Position numbers and translations under genes: made by a program. From Ginglymostoma cirratum (Eukaryota): a DNA stretch of 64,000 bases. The DNA lies in the NCBI GenBank assembly GCA_024137785.1, contig JAHRHZ010000075.1:4949068-5013067 (forward strand), in the 5' to 3' direction. Every line of letters begins with the position of its first letter. Within the stretch, counting starts at the first letter, position 1. This document shows, in pieces, positions 2,960 to 53,350 of this stretch. The notes under the pieces are model-generated. The model searched no databases, was not told the DNA's origin, and saw nothing but the letters and a program-made list of their open reading frames with translations.

Positions 2960-3075
2960 CCTTTTCTTTTAATCTATTTGTTAAAGATGTTATTACAGCT
3001 CTGGTGCAGGTAGGACTTGAACCCAGGCTTCCTGCTCCAGAAGTAGTGAACACTACCACTGCACCACAACAGCAA
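2960..3075 (-). mobile_element. Short tRNA-derived SINE-like element
   Basis: ggacttgaaccc (B box, minus) and cactaccactgcacca (A box, minus). Confidence 0.7.
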
Positions 3076-7199: not shown

Positions 7200-7668
7200 T
7201 TTTCCCCCTTTATTCATTAATGGGATGAGGGTGTTGCTGGCTAGGTTGCGTTTATGGCCCATCCCTAATTGCCCACAGTGTAGTTCAGAGTCAACCACAT
7301 TGCTACAGTCATAGGTAGGCCAGACCAAGTATGGATGGGGGTTTCCTTCCCTAGAGGACATTAGTGAACCAGATGGGTACTTCCCCAGCAATGGATTCAT
7401 GGTCATCATTAGATCCTTAATTCGAGGTATTTTATTGAATTCAAATTCCACCATCTGCTGTGATAACAAGGTTTAGAGCTGGATGAACACAGCAGGCCAA
7501 ACAGCATCAGAGGAACAGAAAGGCTGATGTTTCGGGCCTAGACCCTTCTTCAGGAAAACAAAATCCACCATCTGCTGTGGCAGACTTTGAACCTGGGTCC
7601 CCAGAACGTTATCTGGGTCTCTGCGTTAACAGTCTAGCAATAACACCACTAGGCCATTGCCTCCCTCG
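7200..7668 (-). mobile_element. tRNA-derived SINE interrupted by a Penelope terminus
   Basis: tRNA-like head (tttgaacctggg, B box on minus) near 7585-7665; body ccatctggttcactaatgtcc (minus); tail shared with the LINE at 13225/20970; same family as 26332 and 56280. Confidence 0.75.
7463..7563 (-). mobile_element. 101-bp Penelope 3' terminus (hammerhead + tail) with 16-bp TSD
   Basis: TSD tccaccatctgctgtg at 7447-7462 and 7564-7579; minus strand CTGAAGAagggtctaggcccGAAAcatc. Confidence 0.85.
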
Positions 7669-10390: not shown

Positions 10391-11542
10391 TTGGGGTTTG
10401 GACATGGTCAGAAGTCAGATATTTGAAATTGCAAGCTTTTGGGTGTTGCCCCTTCATCAGGGGAAGTGCGAGAGAGAAGCACACAGACAGAGAATTTATA
10501 GGCAGAGAGATCAATGGGCATAGAGATCAAAAGATCATACAAATGGTGTGAGAGGAGTGTCGGCAGGCTGATTAATGGATCTCTGCAGGTGATCAAAAGT
10601 GTCAGATGGTGTGAGTAAAGTGTAATCACCTGAATAAGGAGCGAAGGGCTGACCTATAATCCGATTAAATGAGGCAGAGAGATAATTACAAAAGACTAAA
10701 AATAAGATGGTGCTGAAGACAAACCAAAAGACTGGAATAACATAATAGGTGTAACAGCCGCATGCCAAGGGTCTGACCAAAGTAGTAACTAATCCAAAAC
10801 TGTACAAACTAATTAAGGTAGAGAGATCATAACAATTTATCAAGGTGATGGTATCAAAACAGGACTGTGAGGAAGATTTTACAGGTACAGAACAGTGGTG
10901 GGGTCACATGTAACGCGATATAAACCCAAGATTACTGTTGGGGCCGTCTTTATTGTTACTGAACTTGGCTATCGGTTTCTGTTCGGTGATTGTGCGTTGT
11001 TGTGTATCTCGAAGGCCGCTTACCTGAAGGTCAGAGGCTGAAGGTCCTTAACCACTGAAGTGTTTCCCCACTGGGAGGGAACATTCCTGTCTGGCAATTG
11101 TTACACAGTGTCCATTCATCCATTGTCATAGTGTCTGCGACCTTTTGCCAATATACCACACATTAAGGCATCCTTGTCTGCAGCGTATGAGATAGGCAAC
11201 ATTGGCCAAGTCACATGAGTATCTACTGCGTACATGGAGGTTGGTATGTCCACATCTGATGGCAATATCCATGTCGATGATCTGACATATTGATACGGCA
11301 GGATTGTATGGTGTTGAGGCCAATGTTGTCCTGAAGGCTGGGTAGTTTGCTGCGAACAATGGTCTGTTTAAGGTTTAGTGTTGTGGAGGAGGAGGGGAAG
11401 ATCTTGGAGAGGTGCTCATTGTCATTGATGACGTGTTGAAGGCTGCAAAGAACATGGCGTAGTTTCTCCATTCCAGGGAACTACTGGACGATGAAGCGTA
11501 CTGCATCAGTCATATTCTGTGTGTGTCTTCTGAGGAGGTTGT
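10391..11542 (-). mobile_element. Penelope-like element (family 3), left arm of inverted pair; GIY-YIG remnant
   Basis: ORF 11126-11359(-) contains ANVAYLIRCRQGCLNVWYIG; terminus with CTGATGA core at 10454-10460 (minus). Confidence 0.85.
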
Positions 11543-11544
11543 TG

Positions 11545-12545
11545 CGACCACAACACCACACAACCCTGTCATGGCAACCTCTGCAAGACATGTCAGATCA
11601 TCGACATGGACACTACCACTACATGTGGGAACACCATGTACACAATAGATGCTCATGTGACTCGGCCAATGTTGTCTCTCATATTCCATAGGAAAGGATG
11701 CCCTGAGACATGGTACATTGGTGAAACCACACAGATGTTACGACAACAGATGAATGGACACCGTGTAACAATTACCAGATAGGAATGTTCCCTCCCAGTG
11801 GGGAAAATCTTCAGTGGTCAAGGACATTCAGCCTCAAGCCTTCGGGTAAGTGTCCTACAAGGCAGCCTTCAAGATACACAATAACGCAGAATCACTGAGC
11901 AGTAACTGGTAGCCAAGTTTTGTATCCATGAAGAGGGCCTCAACCGCGATCTAGGGTTCATATCACATTGCATGTGATCCCACCACACTGTTCTGTTTCT
12001 GTAAAATCTTCTTCACTGTCCTGTTTTGATGCCATCACCTTGATAAATTAATTGTTATGATCTCTCTACCTTAATTAGTTTGTACAGTTTTGGATGACTT
12101 ATTACTTTGGTTAGACCCTCAGCATGCAACTTTCACAACTATTATGTTATTCCAGTCATTTAGTTTGTCTCCAGCACCACCTTATTTTTAATTGTTTTGT
12201 AATTATCTCTCTGCCACAATTAATCAGATTATAGGTCATCCTTTCGCTTGTTATTCAGCTGTTGACACTTTAGTCACACTGCCTGACACGCTTGATCATC
12301 TGCAGAGGCTTATTATTCAGCCTGTTAATACTCCACTCACACCATTTGTGTGATCTTTTGATCTCTCTGCCCTTGATCTCTCTGCCTATAAATTCTGTGC
12401 CTGTGTGCTTCTCTCTCACTTCTCCTGACGAAGAGGCACCTTTCCGAAAGCTTGTGATTTCAAATAAACCTGTTGGATTGTAAACTGGTCTTGTTTGACT
12501 TCTGACTTTGTCCACCCCTGACCAGCACTGACACCTCCACATTAT
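11545..12545 (+). mobile_element. Penelope-like element (family 3), right arm of inverted pair
   Basis: Encodes PCHGNLCKTC linker and WYIGET GIY-YIG motif; reverse-complement match to about 10391-11330. Confidence 0.85.
12418..12458 (+). ncRNA. Minimal type I hammerhead ribozyme motif (family 3)
   Basis: CTGACGA 12425-12431, GAAA 12446-12449, palindromic AAGCTT helix III; stem II degenerate. Confidence 0.6.
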
Positions 12546-15070: not shown

Positions 15071-16941
15071 CACTCATTCTTAATCTGCACAAGCCTTCAT
15101 CCGTCTTACACAACTATTTTCCTTTCTTCTCTTATCCAGGCACTAGTGACACCCAATGAACCTCCACTAGGAAGAAGCCAGCACTGGAGATCTTCTGATC
15201 CATTCCCCACCTGTGGATTCACTGACAAAGCTTTCATCTACATCCTCCAGCAGCTCAGTTTCAAATTGGTGGGTACTCTATCTCAACGCAGGAATGCAAA
15301 ATGCTCAAACAAAATGCTTCATTCTATATCACAAACCAAGTCCTTGCAATCTTACAATTCTGTGCGTGAATGTGACAGCTGCTAAGCATTATCTTCCAAT
15401 GTTAGCTATAGAATGGGAAATGGGAACTTCAGGTTCCACATAATAGTGTCTGTTTAATTGCAGTTGCTTTGCTGACATGATGAGGAGGAAATTATTGTGC
15501 ACACTGTGATGCTCCAGATTACTTGAGGATGAGTTTCGCATTCTTGTAAAAGAAATGACAAACTGATTTGGTTCAGAGTGAAGTCAGATGGAAGGCATTA
15601 CTGTATCAGTGGAAGCACAATGACTGCAATTGCCCCTAGCAGAGCATCCATTTCCAAGAATTTTACTCCATCCCTGCGTCAGAATTTTACTCCCTCTACC
15701 CACTTTGCAATCCATGCAATCCATTTTGTTCAGTTATCGCACGGTTGACTTTCAATCTGAAATGGCAAGGTTGCAACCTTGTGAGTGAGTTGCAGGGTCT
15801 ACCTGAGACATAAGGTACTCCCCCATCTTTCACATTGTGTTGCTGCTCTCGTAACTTCTGTAACTTTCAAACTCACCCCTTTTATTTGGGTTAAGTCCAT
15901 TGGTATTACTACAAATATGCCCACTTTATTATCAGTTATCTCACTATGTAGATGCCAGAGTGACTGTGACCTGGGAAAAACCCCTACCCCAGAGCTCGAA
16001 GTCCCCCTTCACACTTAGGTCCCCCCCTCTATTTAGAAATGGTCCTATCACATTAATGGTTCCTTCAGCAACCCACTGCAATGAACAGCATCTCAAGATT
16101 TGAACTGTCCAAGTCAAGATTTGTCACAACTCCATGGACTGCAGCTTGATGATTTCCTTGATCATACTCCCAGGACTGACGGACAATCAACCCTCGAAAC
16201 TGACTTAGCAGGACATCCTGATGTGAGCCTGATGAACCTACCTGTATTCCTCAGATTGCTTGCATGTTACTTGCAGGACTGACCATGCCTCAATCTTCCA
16301 CTCTAAAGTGGAAGATATGGATCCCTGGACATTGGTAGGATCACGTGCCTGACTGACAATAGCTAATTCCCTGTACTGTAATCAGATAAGCATCAAGACT
16401 GACTGTGGCACTATCCACAGGCTGACTGTCATCTACCTTGACTCCACTAAGGACCTGCTCCCCTTTGACTTTGACACACAGCCATTTGCTTGAAGTGCAT
16501 GCTGTGTATTTGCCTAGTAAGCTGATGGCACACACAGAGAATTTGACATTGACATGGCGCACTGCCATACAGTGACATGTCCATCACTTTGACAGTTCAG
16601 CACTCACCACCGTGACAAGCTCCCTGTCCTTTCCTCAGCATTAAAGGAAATTCAAGCCATAGAAGCTGGCAGCCTATAGCTGGGCACTGAATGCCAAGAA
16701 ACCACACCAGAGGCTGGCAGCCTATATATCTAGGCTAAAATCAACGAGTGTGCCCTTATAAAGCAGTAAGCAGTGTACACAGTCTGGAGCCTCCAAGTAA
16801 GTGCTAAGTGAGTGAGCACTAAGAAAGCAAGCCAAGAACCATGAGGTGCATCCTCTCTGGAATAATAAAATGCATTTGAGTTGCTGCATGCAAAGTGACC
16901 TGGCAAAAGTGTCTGAATCATGGCAATAGCTATTTTTTTTA

Positions 16942-38390: not shown

Positions 38391-38428
38391 CATTTCTGAT
38401 GAAGGGTCTAGGCCCGAAATGTCAAGCT
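38391..38428 (+). ncRNA. Minimal hammerhead ribozyme motif (family 2)
   Basis: CTGATGA 38396-38402, agggtctaggccc, GAAA 38416-38419, tGTC. Confidence 0.7.
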
Positions 38429-38644
38429 TTCCTGCTCTATGATGCTGCTTGGCCTGCTGTGTTCATCCAGCTCTTCACTTTGTTATCTCTCATGTTCCGA
38501 GGTACCATCAGTTCTAAGGAAGGATCACTGGACCCAAAACATTAACTCTGATTCCTCTTCACAGATGCTGCCAGACCTGATGATCTTTTCCAGCAACTTC
38601 TGTTTTCCAAACAATTTTAGAAAACAGGTTTACAAACAATGCTC

Positions 38645-39560
38645 AGAGATAGCAAGAACTGCTGATGCTGGAGTCAGAGACAACACAGTATGGAGCTGGA
38701 AGAACACAGCAGGCCAGGCAGCAAGAGGAGCAGGAAAGTTGACTTTTCGGGTCAGGACCCTTCTTCAGAAATGGGGTAGGGAGCTCTGAAATAAATAGAG
38801 AGAGGAGGGATGGAACTGGGGACGGTAGGTGGGATGGTGATAGGTGAGTGCATGTCGGCAGTGGTGGGGATTGGTCAGTGAGGTGGGAGAGGTAGATAGG
38901 TGGGAGAGAAGATGGACAGGTTGTATCAGGTCAAGGAGGCGGGGATGAGAGGGAGAGTTGGTCATGGGATGAGGTTGGGGGTGGGGAGATTTTAAAACTG
39001 GTGAATTCCATGTTTAGGCCATCAGGCTGTAGGGTGCCGAGGTAGAATATGAATGTATCAGATAGGGTGGAGAAAAAGTGTTGGTTGAGGTTGTGAATCC
39101 ACCTCAGGACCCTACAGCCCGCTGAGGTGGATTCACAACCTCAACCAACCCTTTTTTTTCACCCTATCTGATACATTCATATTCCACCTCGGCACCCTAC
39201 AGCCTGATGGCCTAAACATGGAATTCACCAGTTTTAAAATCTCCCCACTCCCACCCTCATCCCACATCCAACACCTCCCCCATCCCTGCCTCCTTGACAT
39301 GACACAACCTGTCCATCTTATCTCCCACCTATCTGTCCCTCACATCCCACTGACCAATCCCCACCACTGCCTACATGCACTCACCTATCACCATCCCACC
39401 TACCTTCCCCAGCTCCATCCCTCCTCTCTCTATTTATTTCTGAGCTCCCTTCACCCTCCCCCATTTCTGAAGAAAGGTCCCGACCCGAAATGTCAGCTTT
39501 CCTGCTCCTCTGATGCTGCCTGGCCTGCTGTGTTCCTCCAGCTCCACACTGTTATCTCTA
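38645..39560. mobile_element. Palindromic Penelope insertion (two ~440-bp arms, termini outward)
   Basis: Arms 38645-39107 and 39122-39560; 14-nt loop; hammerhead cores at 38738-38770 (minus) and 39467-39494 (plus). Confidence 0.9.
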
Positions 39561-40629: not shown

Positions 40630-43600
40630 GGAGTCCACATAGGGAGATAGAAGAGAGAGAAACAAGGGGAAAAGCAAATGACAGAATGTGAAATAAGAAA
40701 AGTTATAAGCAGAGAATTCAAGGACAAGAATCACACAGGGCCATAGTGCAAAATAATACAAATGGCACTAAAAATGTTAAAAATTCAAGCTTTTATCCCC
40801 CGTGTCTTAATGCCTGGAGCATTCACAATGAAGTGGATGAATTACTTGTATAGTTAAACATGAATGATATCACTGGAATTGTGGAGATGTGGTTGTCGGG
40901 TGACCAGCGATGGGAATTGAGTATCCAGGAGTATTCAGTTTTTAGGAAGGACGGACAAAAAGGTAAAGGATCTGGGGTAGCATTGCTGTTTAAAGGGGAC
41001 ATTAAAGCAGTAATGAGGAAGGAGATGAGCTCCAGTGAAATGGGGTCTGTGTGGCTAGAGCTTAGAAAAACCAGAAGACGATAGTGGGGGATGTACTGAG
41101 ACTCCCAAAGTGTAATGGTATGTTGGGGAAGTCATTAAACAGTAAATTAGAGACAGTATCATAATAAAGGTACAGCTGTAATTATGGGCCACTTTAATCT
41201 GCCTATAGATTGGGCAAATCAAATCAGTAACCGTACTGTAAGGGAGGAATTTCTGCAGTGTGTGTGGGATGGTTTTCTGGATCAATAAATTGAGGAATCA
41301 ATCAGAGAACAGGCGCTCCTAGAGTGGCTATTGTTTAATGATCCAGGAATAATTAGTAACTTACTTGTGTGAGACCCTCGGGAAGAGTGACCACAATATG
41401 ATAGAATGTTTCAATTAAGACGGAGAGTATCTTAGTTGATTCTGAAAGTAGGGTGCTGAATCTAAATAAAGGAAACCATGCTGGTTTGCAGCATTAGGTA
41501 GCTATGATAAATTGTGGCATGGTACTGAAACAGATGATAGTGGAAAGGGCAATGGCAAACATTCAAAGAGGCACATGGAGGAATGGGAACAATTGTTTCT
41601 TCATGTCTGATACAAAAGTTAAACAGGAAAACTGACTCAACTATGGCTAACAAATGAAATTAGCGATAACATTATATTCAGAGGAGGGACATATAATTTG
41701 GCCAAAAAAAGCAATAGACCTGAGTACTGGGGACTGTTTAGATTTCAACAAAGGAATTGATTAACAGCAGAAGAACAAAGCACAAGAGTAAGCTTGCAGG
41801 AGGATACAAATTAGTTGTAAAACTTCCATAGTCATGTGAAGAGAAAATGATTGATGAAGACAAGTGCTGGTCCCTTACAGTCAGAAACAGAGAAGTTACA
41901 ATGGGGAACAAAAAGATGGCAGACCAATTAAGTACGTATTTTGGATCTATATTCACAAATGAAGACACAAATAATTTTCCAAAAATGTGAGGGAACACAG
42001 GGCCTACTGACAGGAACAGAGTGAAGGAAATCAGTATTAGAAGGAAAATGGTGTTGGAGAAATTAATGGGATTAAAGACTGATAAATCCCCAGGCCTCAG
42101 TATTCTACATCCCAAAGTACTTAAGGAATGATTCTGGAAATAGTGGATATTTCCAGATCATTTCAGAATTCTATAGGTATTGGAATCGTTCCTATGGATT
42201 GGAGAACAATTAAAGTGACCCCAGTATTTTTTAAAAAAAGAGAGATAGTAAACAGGGAATTGCTGACCCGTTAGCCTGACATTGGTAATTGGGAAAATGC
42301 TAGGGTCTATTCTGAAAGATTTAATAGCAGAGCACTTGGAAAACAGTGACAAGATTGGATAGAGTTAGGGTGGATTTATGAAAAGGAAATCATGCTTGAT
42401 AAATTTGCTGGACTTCTTCAGGGATGTAACTTGCAGGAGTTGATAAGGTAGAAACAGTGGATGTGCTATACATGGAGACATAGAGTCATAGAGTCATACA
42501 GCACAGAAATAGGCCCTTCGGCCCAATTTGTCCATACCAGTCAGGCTTCCTAAACTGAATTAATTCCTCTTCCTGGAGTTTGGCCTGTATATCTCTAAAC
42601 CTTTCCAATCCATGTACCTGTCAAAACGTCTTTTAAATGTTGTAATTGTACCCACTTCTACCATTTCCTCTGGCAGCTCGTTCCACATACTCACCACCCA
42701 CTGCGTGAAAAAGTTGCCCCTCAGGCCCCTTTCAAATCTTGCCTTTCTCATCTAGTTTTGGACTCCCCTACCCTGGCAAAAAGACCTTGGCTATTCAACT
42801 ATTCTATACCTTTCACGATTTTATAAACCTCTTTAAGGTCACCCCTCAGCATCTTACGTTCCAGGGAGAATAGTCCCAGCCTGTTCATCCTCTCCTTATA
42901 GGTCAAACATTCCAGTCTCGGTAACATCCTTGTAAATCTTTTTTGCACCCTTTCCAGTTTAATAACATCCTCCCTATAGCAGGGCGATCACAATTACATG
43001 CAGTAATCCAAATGTGGCCTTACTAATATCTTGTACTGCTGTAATAAGACATCCCAACTCCCGTACTCAATATTCTGAATGATGAACCCAAATGTACCAC
43101 ACACCACCTTCAACTCCCTGTCTACCTGGTCGCCACTTTCAAGGAACTGTGAACTTGCATCCATAGGTCTCTCAACATCACTCCCCAGGGCCCCACCATT
43201 AACCGTTTAAGTCCTGCCCTGGTTTTGTCTTACCAAAATACAACACCTTGAATTAAGGTCATTTGTGATTTCTCAGCCCATTGGCCCAGCTGACCAAGAT
43301 CCTATTGCACTCTTAGATAACCTTCTTCATTTTCCATGAAGGCCTTTGGTAAGGTTCCCCATTAGAGATTAGTATGTAAAATTAAAATGCATGGGATTGT
43401 GGCTAGTGTACTGATATGGATCAAGAACCAGTTGATAGACTGGAAACAAAGTGAAGGAAAAAACAGGACCTTTCCTGATTGGCAGCCAGTGATTAGTGGG
43501 GAACCATAGGGATCAGTGCTTGGACATCAACTATGCACAATAAATGTTAATGATTTAGAGGAGGGCACTAAATTTAACATCTCCAAAGTTTGCAGAAGAC

Positions 43601-47200: not shown

Positions 47201-47852
47201 GGACCCAAGGACCAGCACATTATCTAAAAATGACAGATTGCAGTGATCTGAGATTCAGAGAAATCCGTGTGTCCTAGTGTATGAATCACAGAATATTACT
47301 GTGTGTGCACAGAGAGCAATCAGGCAATCTAATTGAATCTAATCTCTTCCAATTCCTCCTACTTCCTACAGACAAAGGGGGTGGCCATGGGTACCCGCAT
47401 GGGCCCAAGCTATGCCTGCATCTTTGCAGGTTACGTGGAACAATCCCTCTTCCGTACCTACACTGGCCCTAAACCCCACCTCTTCCTCCGTTACATTGAT
47501 GACTGCATCGGCGCCGCCTTGTGCTCCCACGAGGAGCTCGAACAGTTCATCCACTTCACCAACACCTTCCACCCCAACCTGAAGTTCACCTAGACCATCT
47601 CCAACACTTCTCTCTCCTTCTTGGACCTCTCTGTTTCCATCTCGGGTAACCACCTAGAAACAATGTCCATTTCAAGCCCACTGACTCCCACAGCTACCTG
47701 GAATACACCTCTTCCCACCCACCTTCCTGCAAAATGCCATCCCCTATTCCCAATTCCTTCGCCTCTGCCGCATCTGCTCCCAGGATGAGACATTCCACTC
47801 CCGTACATCCGAAACATCCTCATTCTTCAAGGACCGCAACTTCCTCCCCACA

Positions 47853-48572
47853 GTGGTCGAGAACGCATCCCTCACTCCCCGTCCCCACAATACTAACCAA
47901 AAAAGAATCCCCCTCGTCCTCACATACCACCCCACCAACCTCCGGATCCAACGCATCATCCTCCGACACTTCCGCCATCTGCAACCAGACCCCACCATCA
48001 AAGACATTTTTCCCTCCCCACCCTTATCTGCCTTCCGGAGGGACCACTCCCTCCGCGACTCCCTTGTCTGCTCCACACTCCCCTCCAGCCCCACCACACC
48101 CGGCACTTTTCCCTGCAACCGCAGGAAGTGCTACACCTGCCCCCACACCTCCTCCCTCACCCCAATCCCAGGCCCCAAGAAGACTTTCCACATCAGGCAG
48201 ATGTTCACCTGCACATCTGTCAATGTGGTATACTGCATCCGCTGTACCCGTTGTGGCTTCCTCTACATCGGGGAAACCAAGCGGAGGCTTGGGGACCATT
48301 TTGCAGAACACCTGCGCTCAGTTCGCAACAAACAACTGCACCTCCCAGTCGCGAACCATTTCAACTCCCCCTCCCATTCCTCAGATGACACGTCCATCCT
48401 GGGCCTCCTGCAATGCCACAGTGATGCCACCCGAAGGCTGCAGGAACAGCAACTCATATTCAGCCTGGGAACCCTGCAGCCCAATGGCATCAATGTGGAT
48501 TTCACAAGCTTCAAAATCTCCCCTCCCCCAACCGCATCCCAAAACCAGCCCAGCTCATCTCCACCTCCCTAA
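47853..48572 (+). CDS. Penelope Cys-linker + GIY-YIG endonuclease reading frame (part of a disrupted pol)
   Basis: PCNRRKCYTC linker; NVVYCIRCTRCGFLYIGETKRRLGDHFAEH; LGTLQPNGIN. Upstream RT has a stop at 47591 and a frameshift. Confidence 0.85.
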   Translation: MVENASLTPRPHNTNQKRIPLVLTYHPTNLRIQRIILRHFRHLQPDPTIKDIFPSPPLSAFRRDHSLRDSLVCSTLPSSPTTPGTFPCNRRKCYTCPHTSSLTPIPGPKKTFHIRQMFTCTSVNVVYCIRCTRCGFLYIGETKRRLGDHFAEHLRSVRNKQLHLPVANHFNSPSHSSDDTSILGLLQCHSDATRRLQEQQLIFSLGTLQPNGINVDFTSFKISPPPTASQNQPSSSPPP

Positions 48573-48822
48573 CCTGTTTTTCCTCTCACCTCAAGCCACA
48601 CCCCCATCTCCTATCTACTAACATCATCCCGCCCCCTTGACCTGTCCATCCTCCCTGGACTGACCTATCTCCTCCCTACCCCCCTACCTACACTCACCTT
48701 TACTGGCTCCATCCCCGCCTCTTCGACTTGTCTGTCTCCTCTCCACCTATCCTCTCCTCTATCCATCCTCTATCCGCCTCCCCCTCGCTCCCTATTTATT
48801 TCAGAACCCTCTTCCCCTCCCC

Positions 48823-48860
48823 CATTTCTGATGAAGGGTCTAGGCCTGAAACGTCAAGTT
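48823..48860 (+). ncRNA. Minimal type I hammerhead ribozyme motif (family 2)
   Basis: attt-CTGATGA(48828-48834)-agggtctaggcct-GAAA(48848-48851)-cGTC-aagt; stem I attt/aagt; predicted cleavage after 48855. Confidence 0.75.
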
Positions 48861-48968
48861 TTCCTGCTCCTATGATGCTGCTTGACCTGCTGTGTTCATC
48901 CAGCCCCATGCTTGTTATCTCGGATTCTCCAGCATCTGCAGTACCTTTTATCTCGAATCTAATTGAAT

Positions 48969-49590
48969 GTTATGTTTTGTTGTGAGGTGAATTGACTGCA
49001 AGAGTTGGGAGATTATGCTTTAGTTATGCAGGGATTTGATGAGAACACATCTAGAGTGCTGAGTACTGGTCACCACACCAATGGAAGGATGTTAAAGCAT
49101 TGGTTTACTACAGTGACACCTGGAACGAGCAGATTTCCTTATGACAAAAGGCTAAACAAGCTCGGCCTCTTCTGAAGATTAGAAGAGACAGGGTGATTTA
49201 ATTGAAACATAGAAGATTCTGAGGGAACTTGACTGGATGGTTGTCGAAACGATGTTTCATCTTGCCGGAGAATCTAGAACTAGGGATCATCTTTTAAAAA
49301 TTAAAACTTACCTTTTTAAGGCAGAGATAATGGGAAGAAAAGTTCTCTCTGAAAGTTGTAAGTCTTTGGAATTCCCGTCCTCAAAAAGCATGTAGATGTA
49401 GATGTGGATGTAGAGCCAGTAAAAACTTTTAAGGAAGACATCGATCTTGATCATGAAGGAGATGAGTGATTATTGCTCGTATGCAGGAATGTAGAGTTGA
49501 AGTTTAAGTCAGATCAGCCGTGATTTTATTGAGTGGTGGAGCAAGCTCAAAGGGCCAAGTGACTTCGTCTTGTTCCTGGTTCATATGTTT
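48969..49590 (+). mobile_element. Old CR1 3' portion (host of the Penelope insertion)
   Basis: Degenerate RPHLE, LFSLE and WNS motifs plus 3' UTR; continues from about 47280-47338. Confidence 0.7.
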
Positions 49591-50764: not shown

Positions 50765-51570
50765 TCATAGAATCATATAGCAAGGAAACAGAGCCTTTGG
50801 TCCAATTCGTCCATGCCGACCAGGTTTAATAATCTGAACCAATCCCATTTGCCTACATTTGTTCCATATCCCTCTATACCTTTCTTATTCATGTACCTTA
50901 ACAAATGTCTTTTATATGTTGTAATTGCACTCGCCTCTACCACTTCTTTTGGCTGTTGTTCCATATGTGCCCCACCCTCTTAAATCTTTGCACTCTGTAA
51001 TTTCCTTACAAATTTGTACCTCTACAATGTTCCCAGTTATTGGTGCTCTGGACTAAATCGAGCAACGTAATTGCATGTTTTTGTACCTCAGCTTCAACCA
51101 GTTTCAGACCTTTACTTCTCTGGGATATCGTCATTCCAGCAGTTATAGTTCTCCTTAATCAATAACCCCTTTCTTTCAGTTCCTTTCCCCTTGAAGAGCT
51201 TGCATCCAAGGATGTTTAATACACAGTCCTGGTCTTTTTTGAGCCAGGTCTCAGTCATTACTACAGCATCACATTTCTTGTGTTTACCTGCATCTGTAAC
51301 TTGCCAATCTTTATTACCATTCTCCCTGCATTCTCATTGATATACATTAAACCTAATTTACACTTTGTTACTTTTCCTGGTATACTGAACCTAATTTATC
51401 ATTACCTGTTCTTGTACTATCTGTCTCTTCCAATATTCCTACCTTGTTATCCCTCTCTACAATTATCCCCGATTCCATATTATTGCCAAATTTGTTTAAA
51501 TCCTCCCAACAGCACTAACGAATCACCCTGCAATGAAATTCATCCTTACTCTGTTTAGCTGCAACGTGTC
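50765..51570 (-). mobile_element. CR1 3' end (50765-50980) plus older antisense CR1 5'/EN fragments
   Basis: catagaatcatatagcaaggaaacagagcctttggtcc tail; gagccaggtctcagtcatt (ETWL on minus). Confidence 0.65.
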
Positions 51571-52224: not shown

Positions 52225-52966
52225 TGGCAGTCAGCGTCAGCTTAAAGAGTGAGTGAAAGGAAGACACAGAGACTGTGTGCTGGTAGTTTAGAATTGCATC
52301 TTCCTCTACTATGGGTAAAGCAGCAAGCTGTTTGCTGAGTATCTGGTGTGTGGTTAAGATCTATTCTATCCCTAACGTTTAAAATAATATAGCAACTGGT
52401 AGTAAGGTTCATGAATTATATAAAACAGGGGGAAGAATAAGGATTATTTAAGTAGTTAATTGTGTAGTTAATAAGGCTGGCAAGATAGGTGCTGTGTCAT
52501 GGCTGCAGTAGGTTAGAACTTCTGGATGCCATAGCAATTCAAGATAAACAGGCCTACAGTGAATGTTCAAAGCTCAAACAGCTTCAGCTCAGAGTTTATG
52601 AGCTGGAAACTGAACTGCAGATATTGCAACACAACAGGCAAAGAAAAGCAACCTGGATAGTTTGTACCAGCTGTTACATCCTTTAGGACAGGCTCATCTG
52701 ATTTTGAATGTGGTAAGTGAAAGGAGGGCGTGACTGCAAGTGAGGCCATTAAGAGGGATCCAGAGGGCAACAGTCAGTTTTAGTGAATGTCCATTCTGCT
52801 TGCTTAGATGTGAGTGCAGGCTGGAGGACGATTGAACCAACTAACCATGGAACCATGGGGAAAATGAAATTATAGAATTATAGTGCCAATAGGAGACAGT
52901 ATAATAATGGGGATGCATACTGTTCTGTGCAGCCAAGAGTGTGAGGCCAGAGGGCTGTGTTGCCTG
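52225..52966 (+). mobile_element. CR1 5' region: ORF1 zinc finger/leucine zipper and SGNH-esterase relic
   Basis: CHGC...ECSKLKQLQLRVYELETELQIL; IGDSIIMG...LC...GLCCL (GDS esterase motif). Confidence 0.7.
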
Positions 52967-53350
52967 AAACGAAAACAGAAATTGCTGGAGAAACCTGACA
53001 GATCTGGCAGCGTCTGTGGAGAGAAAGCAGAGTTAATGTTCCAGGCCGAGTGACCCTTCATCAGAACTGATTGCAGCTCCACTACAAATCCATTGACCTC
53101 CACAGTCACCTGGATTATACAACCTTACACCCATCTTTCTGTAAAGAAAGTCCACCTTTTTCTTCAACTGAATATCCCCACGACCGTGGTTGACAGGGCA
53201 GTCAGTCGCGTTTGATCCATCTCTCGCACTTTGGCCCTCACCTGTTCTCTTCCTCCACAGCACTGATAGGGTCTCCCTGGTCTTCATCTACCACCCCACC
53301 AGCATCCACATCCAAAGGACCATTGCCACCATGATTTCCAATCGCCTTCC
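52967..53350. mobile_element. Penelope inverted terminus (minus, 52967-53070) + plus-strand thumb fragment
   Basis: Minus CTGATGAagggtcactcggcctGGAA; DRVSLVFIYHPTSIHIQR. Confidence 0.8.

Follow-up and report, generated by a model that had tools for sequence, protein, structure and literature searches.

Minimal hammerhead ribozyme motifs at the ends of Penelope-like insertions in a 64-kb window of the Ginglymostoma cirratum genome

The type copy and the insertion that carries it

The window, the whole 64,000-nucleotide stretch of contig JAHRHZ010000075.1 that was analysed, was found to contain a 5'-truncated Penelope-like insertion of family A with a minimal hammerhead motif near its 3' end, taken here as the type copy. 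The insertion and its parts, all on the plus strand, are as follows.

47326..47338: left target-site duplication, 13 bp, A+T-rich, an exact match to 48956-48968
47339..48955: 5'-truncated Penelope-like insertion, family A, with the type copy (from ORF homology, target duplication and contig depth)
47343..47650: reverse transcriptase (RT) C-terminal remnant (GVAMGTRMGPSYA...RYIDD), followed by a stop and a frameshift; Pfam RVT_1 E 0.007, below the curated cut-off
47685..48572: RT thumb, C-X4-C-X2-C linker and GIY-YIG endonuclease, open for 295 aa
~48114-48140: C-X4-C-X2-C linker
~48225-48437: GIY-YIG domain, Pfam E 0.003, below cut-off
48793..48799: TATA-like TATTTAT, putative promoter, 31 nt before an initiator-like CCATTT with its A at 48824
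48824..48827: helix I 5' strand AUUU, with the putative transcript start at 48824
48828..48855: minimal hammerhead, type copy (CUGAUGA, extra A, stem II, GAAA, helix III word ACGU, C17)
48856..48955: helix I 3' strand AAGU and tail, with the short-tail end at ~48922 and the long-tail end at 48955
48956..48968: right target-site duplication, an exact match to 47326-47338

The RT and C-terminal GIY-YIG domains are colinear but lie in a broken frame (47343-48572); homologues have both domains. The best protein match of the 295-aa frame is from Stegostoma tigrinum (zebra shark) at 80% identity, with further matches to RT+GIY-YIG proteins at 36–48%. Residues 144–152 of this frame form the linker CNRRKCYTC, which marks the element as being of the Neptune/Nematis type by a published linker criterion (C-X2-5-C-X2-C; PMC8557442) rather than by a tree. 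The zebra shark protein model continues through the 3' region to a C-terminus ...SLMKGLRPKRQLLCS, which resembles the translated hammerhead region of the window, so that the motif is probably found at the same place in that species. From one public DNA run, 40,349 contig records map to 48360-48990 (631 nt) and the depth drops ~90-fold after 48953; family A is very abundant and its long-tail end is fixed. GIY-YIG-type ORF remnants also adjoin the ends of other hammerhead families. An earlier note, made from the letters of this DNA, had placed the motifs on Penelope termini, and this was borne out, as every well-kept copy lies at the terminus of a GIY-YIG element or of a short fragment from that terminus.

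The hammerhead of the type copy follows the RT-GIY-YIG frame, the stop of which is 255 nt upstream. Positions C3 to A9 read CUGAUGA (48828-34), followed by a single extra A (48835), stem II (48836-47, GGGU/GCCU with a CUAG loop), GAAA (48848-51), the helix III word ACGU (48851-54) and C17 (48855). The predicted cut between 48855 and 48856 is the one given in the earlier note. Helix I has 4 bp, one of them a wobble, while the 10.1-11.1 pair is G-U, with C there in most of the mapped contig depth. The absence of a loop III, together with the palindromic 15.2-16.2 word, bears out the earlier classing as minimal type I hammerheads, in which helix III can form only in dimers (PMC4209133). Stem II and its CUAG loop (48836-48847, and in other family A copies) are self-complementary over 12 nt, so stem II pairing between two such RNAs is predicted. 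The folding energy of this duplex for the type copy is -30 kcal/mol vs. -1.1 kcal/mol for the modelled homodimer, and in these models the stem II-stem II duplex is likely an inactive trap or a dimer nucleation site.

Other repeats were also noted in the window. ORF pieces at 27555-28130 (-), 40854-41081 (+) and 51115-51333 (-) presumably belong to CR1/L2-type LINE reverse transcriptase and endonuclease, which they resemble (Pfam Exo_endo_phos E 0.024 for 40854). Short repeats at 778-879, 2418-2527 and 2983-3073 are probably tRNA-derived SINE heads, a weak tRNA-like Rfam match being found at 3002-3065 (E 1.8) and none by ARAGORN. A candidate SNAD1 match at 15171-15440 (+) was rejected as probably due to chance (Pfam E 0.0026, below cut-off; 0 homologues among 382 candidates).

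Census, core conservation and decay of the copies

A minimal type I hammerhead copy is present at all 13 places listed in the earlier note. The minus-strand numbers given there are low ends, with C3 at 7553, 10460, 25151, 27190, 34742, 37292, 38768 and 53064 (the last being confirmed as a minus-strand copy). A pattern scan, with 60 dinucleotide shuffles of the window as the chance baseline, gave 9 matches for the exact core with a stem II of at least 3 bp vs. 0.42±0.69 in shuffles (maximum 3), and 3 vs. 0.02 (maximum 1) when a palindromic helix III was added. One strict match, 25658(-), has another layout, lies within an element ORF and is probably a chance match. That the motif as a whole is such a chance match is an explanation of vanishingly small probability. 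It is favoured by the relaxed scan with one mismatch, which gave 11 matches vs. 3.5±1.9 in shuffles (maximum 9), and by an Rfam scan of the window at E<=10, in which the hammerhead family was absent from the 9 matches (the best being MIR6462 on the 38644-39559 fold-back). However, against it stand the strict scan, the constant position of the motif behind GIY-YIG frames, and the extra A and G10.1-C11.1 pair, which are common to the copies though the descriptor left both free. The hammerhead pattern had 0 matches in viral contigs and 1 in metagenome contigs. The latter (contig L001, 117-145, minus strand) matches the window copies in core, stem II start and ACGU word, with an apparent GIY-YIG end upstream and an unrelated tail.

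BLAST with 12 seeds returned 30 rows, comprising 26 tail copies and 4 rows that were ORF matches or a duplicate. The density of one motif per 4–5 kb claimed earlier is thus too low, at ~1 tail copy per 2.5 kb, while the occurrence on both strands holds. Recurrence of the core was found in part, as 10 of the 13 listed copies have all 11 core positions and three are broken (GAGA at 27201, GGAA at 53064 and AAAA at 10460). Core and stem II are both kept in 8/13, and core, stem II and a palindromic helix III in 3/13 (48828+, 37292- and 34742-). Among 18 scored copies, the type copy included, the complete core CUGANGA...GAAA...UH is present in 10. All five stem II variants quoted earlier, with the stem kept and the loop changing, occur in the window. 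Three helix III words (AACGTT, ACGT and AAGCTT) had been proposed, but AACGTT and AAGCTT take in core A14 as well as base 17 at the cut site, which leaves two words, ACGU for families A and B and AGCU for family C. Helix III is therefore a 4-base word and the six-letter forms make no 6-bp helices. AGCU is seen in both family C copies and ACGU in 4 of the 16 A/B copies, the remainder being mostly CpG decay. The extra A between A9 and 10.1 is invariant in 15/15 aligned rows, and the 10.1-11.1 pair over these rows is GC in 9, GU in 5 and other in 1. Helix I has 4 bp with one wobble in family B (AGUU/AACU), 2–3 bp in other A copies and 1 bp in C.

Across families A, B and C the core is identical at 11/11 positions, whereas ungapped 40-nt flanks agree at 8–16 of 40, as would be expected if the core were more conserved than its surroundings. 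In the covariation alignment, made up of 15 related rows drawn from three families, pairing reaches 92.5% in stem II and 73% of cells in helix I. The covariation score of 0.314 was reached by 4/500 shuffles and fell to 0.02–0.11 when the pairing was slid, but double-sided changes were not above shuffles (73/500). Within family B, departures from consensus are as frequent in the core (13/109) as in the tail (90/603; p 0.46). In family A they number 0/66 in the core and 37/374 in the tail (p 0.003); this difference could mean retention, though the copies were found via the core and the tail count includes subfamily differences. The helix III CpG is kept in 4/16 A/B copies and lost in 12/16, with CpG transitions in 10. 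The simplest reading of these patterns is selection in active lineages followed by neutral decay after insertion.

Architecture of the insertions and the putative transcript start

The further insertions discussed below are the following, with strands given for each core where two arms are present.

7463..7558, minus strand: solo short copy that starts 5 nt before C3 and stops at the short-tail end, within a 21-nt duplication (20/21)
10420..12545: family C inverted pair, cores 10460- and 12425+; AGCU; stem II decayed; right end approximate
25017..26146: family B pair, in which the short arm (25151-) is fused to an arm with a truncated ORF and the full 3' end (26045+)
27053..27301: family B pair, two short arms head to head, cores 27190- and 27201+; 14-bp duplication with 1 mismatch
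34611..38608: family B tail-out pair, cores 34742- and 38514+; long decayed minus-strand ORF; 14-bp duplication
37166..38490: family A tail-out inverted pair, cores 37292- and 38396+, with an N gap between; 16–17 bp duplication
38644..39559: family A2 fold-back pair, cores 38768- and 39467+, arms 14 nt apart
52964..53071, minus strand: short family B arm, core 53064 (GGAA), start 7 nt before C3, joined to an opposite-strand ORF remnant

The element end is present twice, tail-out, in six insertions, to which 10 of the 13 listed copies belong. Target duplications were found in four of the seven insertions tested (that of the type copy and three of the six pairs), being 13–21 bp overall, and their clear presence around inverted pairs indicates that each pair is one insertion event. 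A duplication was also found at 2/13 short copies. All six pairs have one long-tail and one short-tail arm (ends of 25151/26045 and 10460/12425 read by eye), with long tails ending ~+125 to +137 and short tails ~+92 to +100 from C3, a difference of ~30 nt. No full-length or tandem element is present within the 64-kb window, and the dimer expected to act in element RNA is accordingly not seen in it. Same-sense copies of one family are nowhere closer than ~1 kb and the pairs are inverted, so the layout of tandem retrozymes is not seen. Inverted repeats, a 30–40 bp tail at one end and target duplications are known for Penelope-like elements (PMC3846280; PMC8557442), and two internal RT starts, with both DNA strands nicked and extended, have been described for an anole element (PMC11167929).

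The 37166-38490 pair was inserted into the 34611-38608 element, in whose right arm it is nested. With its duplication (37149-37165/38491-38507) it splits the family B TATA-like box from its hammerhead, and at its centre lies a 400-N assembly gap (37637-38036), as is expected where fold-backs hinder assembly. The ~2 kb decayed Penelope-like ORF at 34989-37040 (-) is the longest in the window, and its 3' part was compared.

In families A, B and C a TATA-like box lies 28–31 nt before an initiator-like A, which itself is 4–7 nt before C3. TATTTAT and CCATTT are presumed to be TATA-like and initiator-like from the consensus motifs. Short arms begin at -5 (7553 and 25151) and -7 (53064) relative to C3, the duplication at 7553 having a score of 18 (p 0.005 vs. 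400 random places), and fold-back joints at 48821-48825 were seen in a few DNA contigs. That short copies begin near the putative start and not at the cut site suggests that uncut RNA may be the insertion template. Against such a start site, 11/13 short copies have no detectable duplication fixing the 5' end, 58188 begins near +3 and the old copy 22150 has no clear hammerhead remnant. A TATA box and initiator were noted earlier in Penelope-like repeats (PMC3846280; PMC8557442), and for the anole element unprocessed RNA was the main template in vitro, with cleavage being protein-assisted (PMC11167929). Of the contig sets mapped at 82%, one from DNA and three possibly from RNA, the latter three have greater depth 3' of the cut site, a rise to be read with the tail being common to more subfamilies and with contigs being unable to show RNA ends. 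No position at which many molecules begin or end was listed, the listing covering 40 of 104 variant rows and 15 of 33 joints, and this mapping bears on neither cleavage nor splicing.

In the consensus fold, the 5' half of the core (48828-48835) is pairable with the tail (48893-48901) in all six family A copies. This helix has 8 pairs with one double-sided change, at N7; it is absent from the family B consensus fold and variable in single-copy folds.

The tails of family B (24305+, 53014-, 1072-, 58534+, 55633+ and 15014-) have a branch-point-like UUAAC over the cut site, a pyrimidine tract and CAG. When 8760 AG sites were ranked in a crude scan, such tails accounted for 6 of the 16 best acceptors, and in sense transcripts they could be used as cryptic splice acceptors; family A is without the AG. 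As regards a retained intron, a stretch resembling a branch point and acceptor lies directly behind the cut site in B and not in A, GT..AG was present in none of the 15 joints listed of 33, and RNA starting at helix I has no good splice donor for an intron around the hammerhead.

Competing explanations and comparison with known systems

The motifs are very probably terminal-repeat hammerheads of at least three Penelope-like families, now truncated and often back-to-back insertion debris, which likely act only in element RNA. Two tandem copies in element RNA would pair via ACGU and cut that RNA, likely helped by an element protein. A TATA/initiator-like promoter in the repeat may start RNA 4–7 nt before C3, and reverse transcription would start at two internal sites, ~95 and ~125 nt behind C3, with both DNA strands, once nicked, serving as primers. 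Where it is primed in the front repeat, synthesis would run off the RNA 5' end and give short copies of 100–130 nt; as these hold the whole hammerhead, their RNA template would be uncut. After insertion, copies would decay without selection, the helix III CpG first.

The earlier note had further supposed that dispersed same-sense copies in one long transcript dimerise through helix III and cut host pre-mRNA appreciably. To make a double hammerhead, two copies must pair through helix III, and the front of one must form helix I with the back of the other. There are 16 same-strand pairs with both cores intact; helix III is fully pairable in 6, and helix III with at least 3 bp of helix I in both halves in only 2, namely 38396/48828 (10.4 kb apart) and 25151/34742 (9.6 kb). 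The 26 tail copies, a density above that claimed, would help such pairing, as would the sharing of ACGU by families A and B and the mutual complementarity of the CpG-decayed forms ACAU and AUGU. Tandem hammerhead retrozymes are moreover reported to be depleted in Xenopus introns (preprint 10.64898/2026.07.22.740005), by which a cost to the host stays possible; however, that depletion is not strand-resolved and concerns tandem arrays. Fully intact copies are but 3 of the 18 scored, cross-family helix I has only 2 bp (37292/34742), and each of the two workable pairs, at those distances, has a member predicted to be locked by its antisense arm. Since the pairs are tail-out, the antisense arm is transcribed before the sense hammerhead from either strand. 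The duplex with this arm is predicted at -43 to -105 kcal/mol in 7/7 arms tested vs. -0.5 to -12 for the active double hammerhead, and stem II had a predicted probability of 0.00 in 5/5 fold-back folds; these are nearest-neighbour equilibrium models which ignore core contacts and proteins. With paired copies folded onto their antisense arms and the lone intact 48828 left without a free partner, host cutting is predicted to be negligible. Published dimer activity is low as well, metazoan minimal hammerheads being inactive as monomers and weakly active as dimers (PMC4209133), and the anole hammerhead was cleaved only with the element protein, RNA-seq ends at its cut site being absent (PMC11167929). 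No host exon was found in the window: 6 candidates from a crude splice-site scan were not gene-like by eye, and Pfam searches of 8 long ORFs, 146 of 369 unmasked ORFs (>=45 aa) and the RT remnant gave sub-cut-off matches only, a result compatible with a long intron. The claim of pairing in cis and pre-mRNA cutting was therefore not upheld, and appreciable cutting of host RNA by dispersed copies is considered highly improbable. It would be a real surprise if true, but the evidence points against it.

It is also conceivable, though unlikely, that the hammerhead is a hitch-hiker or a structural signal (in folding, protein binding or translation control) that does not cut in vivo even in element RNA. 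Insertions do retain the sequence either side of the cut site, and the contigs list no site where many molecules end. Naiad elements thrive without hammerheads, with parasitism having been raised by the authors (PMC8557442), while mutants of the anole hammerhead still insert in vitro and RNA-seq reads never end at its cut site (PMC11167929). However, three families whose flanks are unrelated all keep the 11 catalytic positions, G10.1-C11.1 and a self-complementary helix III word, most simply through selection for catalysis, and protein-assisted cleavage was demonstrated for the anole element (PMC11167929). That the short copies are instead a separate non-autonomous SINE or retrozyme family, spreading via its own small or circular RNA, has a lower probability again, somewhat above that of host cutting. 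Many copies of 100–130 nt do have similar 5' ends, and retrozymes were reported in one chondrichthyan genome (preprint 10.64898/2026.07.22.740005), but the short copies have no upstream TATA-like box and are not tandem, their sequence is the element's own end, and they form one arm of insertions with an ORF in the other (25151/26045 and 53064).

Within the preferred reading of terminal-repeat hammerheads acting in element RNA, a more specific role can be put forward tentatively, as a rather unlikely possibility. The hammerhead would be the first 35 nt of the element mRNA and serve as a protein-gated self-decapping switch, with a tail segment (UUCAUCCAG in family A) shutting the core until the element protein binds the tail. 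The short copies, thousands of them in the genome, would then be cap-to-priming-site run-off cDNAs, recording that uncut RNA was copied and cut RNA withdrawn from insertion and translation. No earlier report of this mRNA-opening and run-off cDNA reading was found in the literature searched, a body outside which most subscription papers lie. If true, it would explain the abundance of lone minimal hammerheads in vertebrate genomes and make ribozyme function testable from genome sequence alone. In print, the function of Penelope-like element hammerheads is still open (PMC8557442; PMC11167929). With the very large sample that shark genomes provide, the uncut template and the host cost could be tested, through short-copy 5' ends and through strand bias within introns.

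By sequence, the hammerheads here belong to the known class of Cervera and De la Peña (2014; PMC4209133). As in that description, they are of type I with no helix III loop and a palindromic 15.2-16.2 word, and have an extra base between 9 and 10.1, G10.1-C11.1, a helix I that is short but of a length varying between copies, and a terminal-repeat location. They likewise occur mostly as single truncated copies, with opposite-strand pairs 100–700 bp apart and many families per genome. Stem II is 4–5 bp here vs. 7–8 bp in Schistosoma, and helix I is 3–4 bp vs. 4–5. The host also differs, the term shark being not found in two searched supplementary files of that paper. Neptune/Nematis-type elements share with those here RT followed by a C-terminal GIY-YIG, the C-X4-C-X2-C linker, 5' truncation, an inverted end at the 5' side, a one-ended tail of 30–40 bp, target duplications and a TATA box and initiator in the repeat (PMC8557442; PMC3846280). 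However, their targets are microsatellites rather than A+T-rich unique DNA, and the window has no tandem or full-length copy. PAc, a Poseidon element of the anole (Frangieh et al., 2024; PMC11167929), is similar in its repeat hammerhead, two tail ends ~30 nt apart, A+T-rich targets and insertion from uncut RNA, the last of which is inferred here. It differs in belonging to another clade, in an ORF demonstrated to start in stem II and in its measured activity, the hammerheads here being known from sequence. Non-LTR retrozymes also have a type I hammerhead, derived from Penelope-like repeats (preprint 10.64898/2026.07.22.740005), but are head-to-tail tandem arrays, whereas those of the window occur singly or head-to-head, with remnants of element ORFs attached. 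A described Penelope-like feature is thus extended to very abundant shark families, with its local density reflecting insertion debris.
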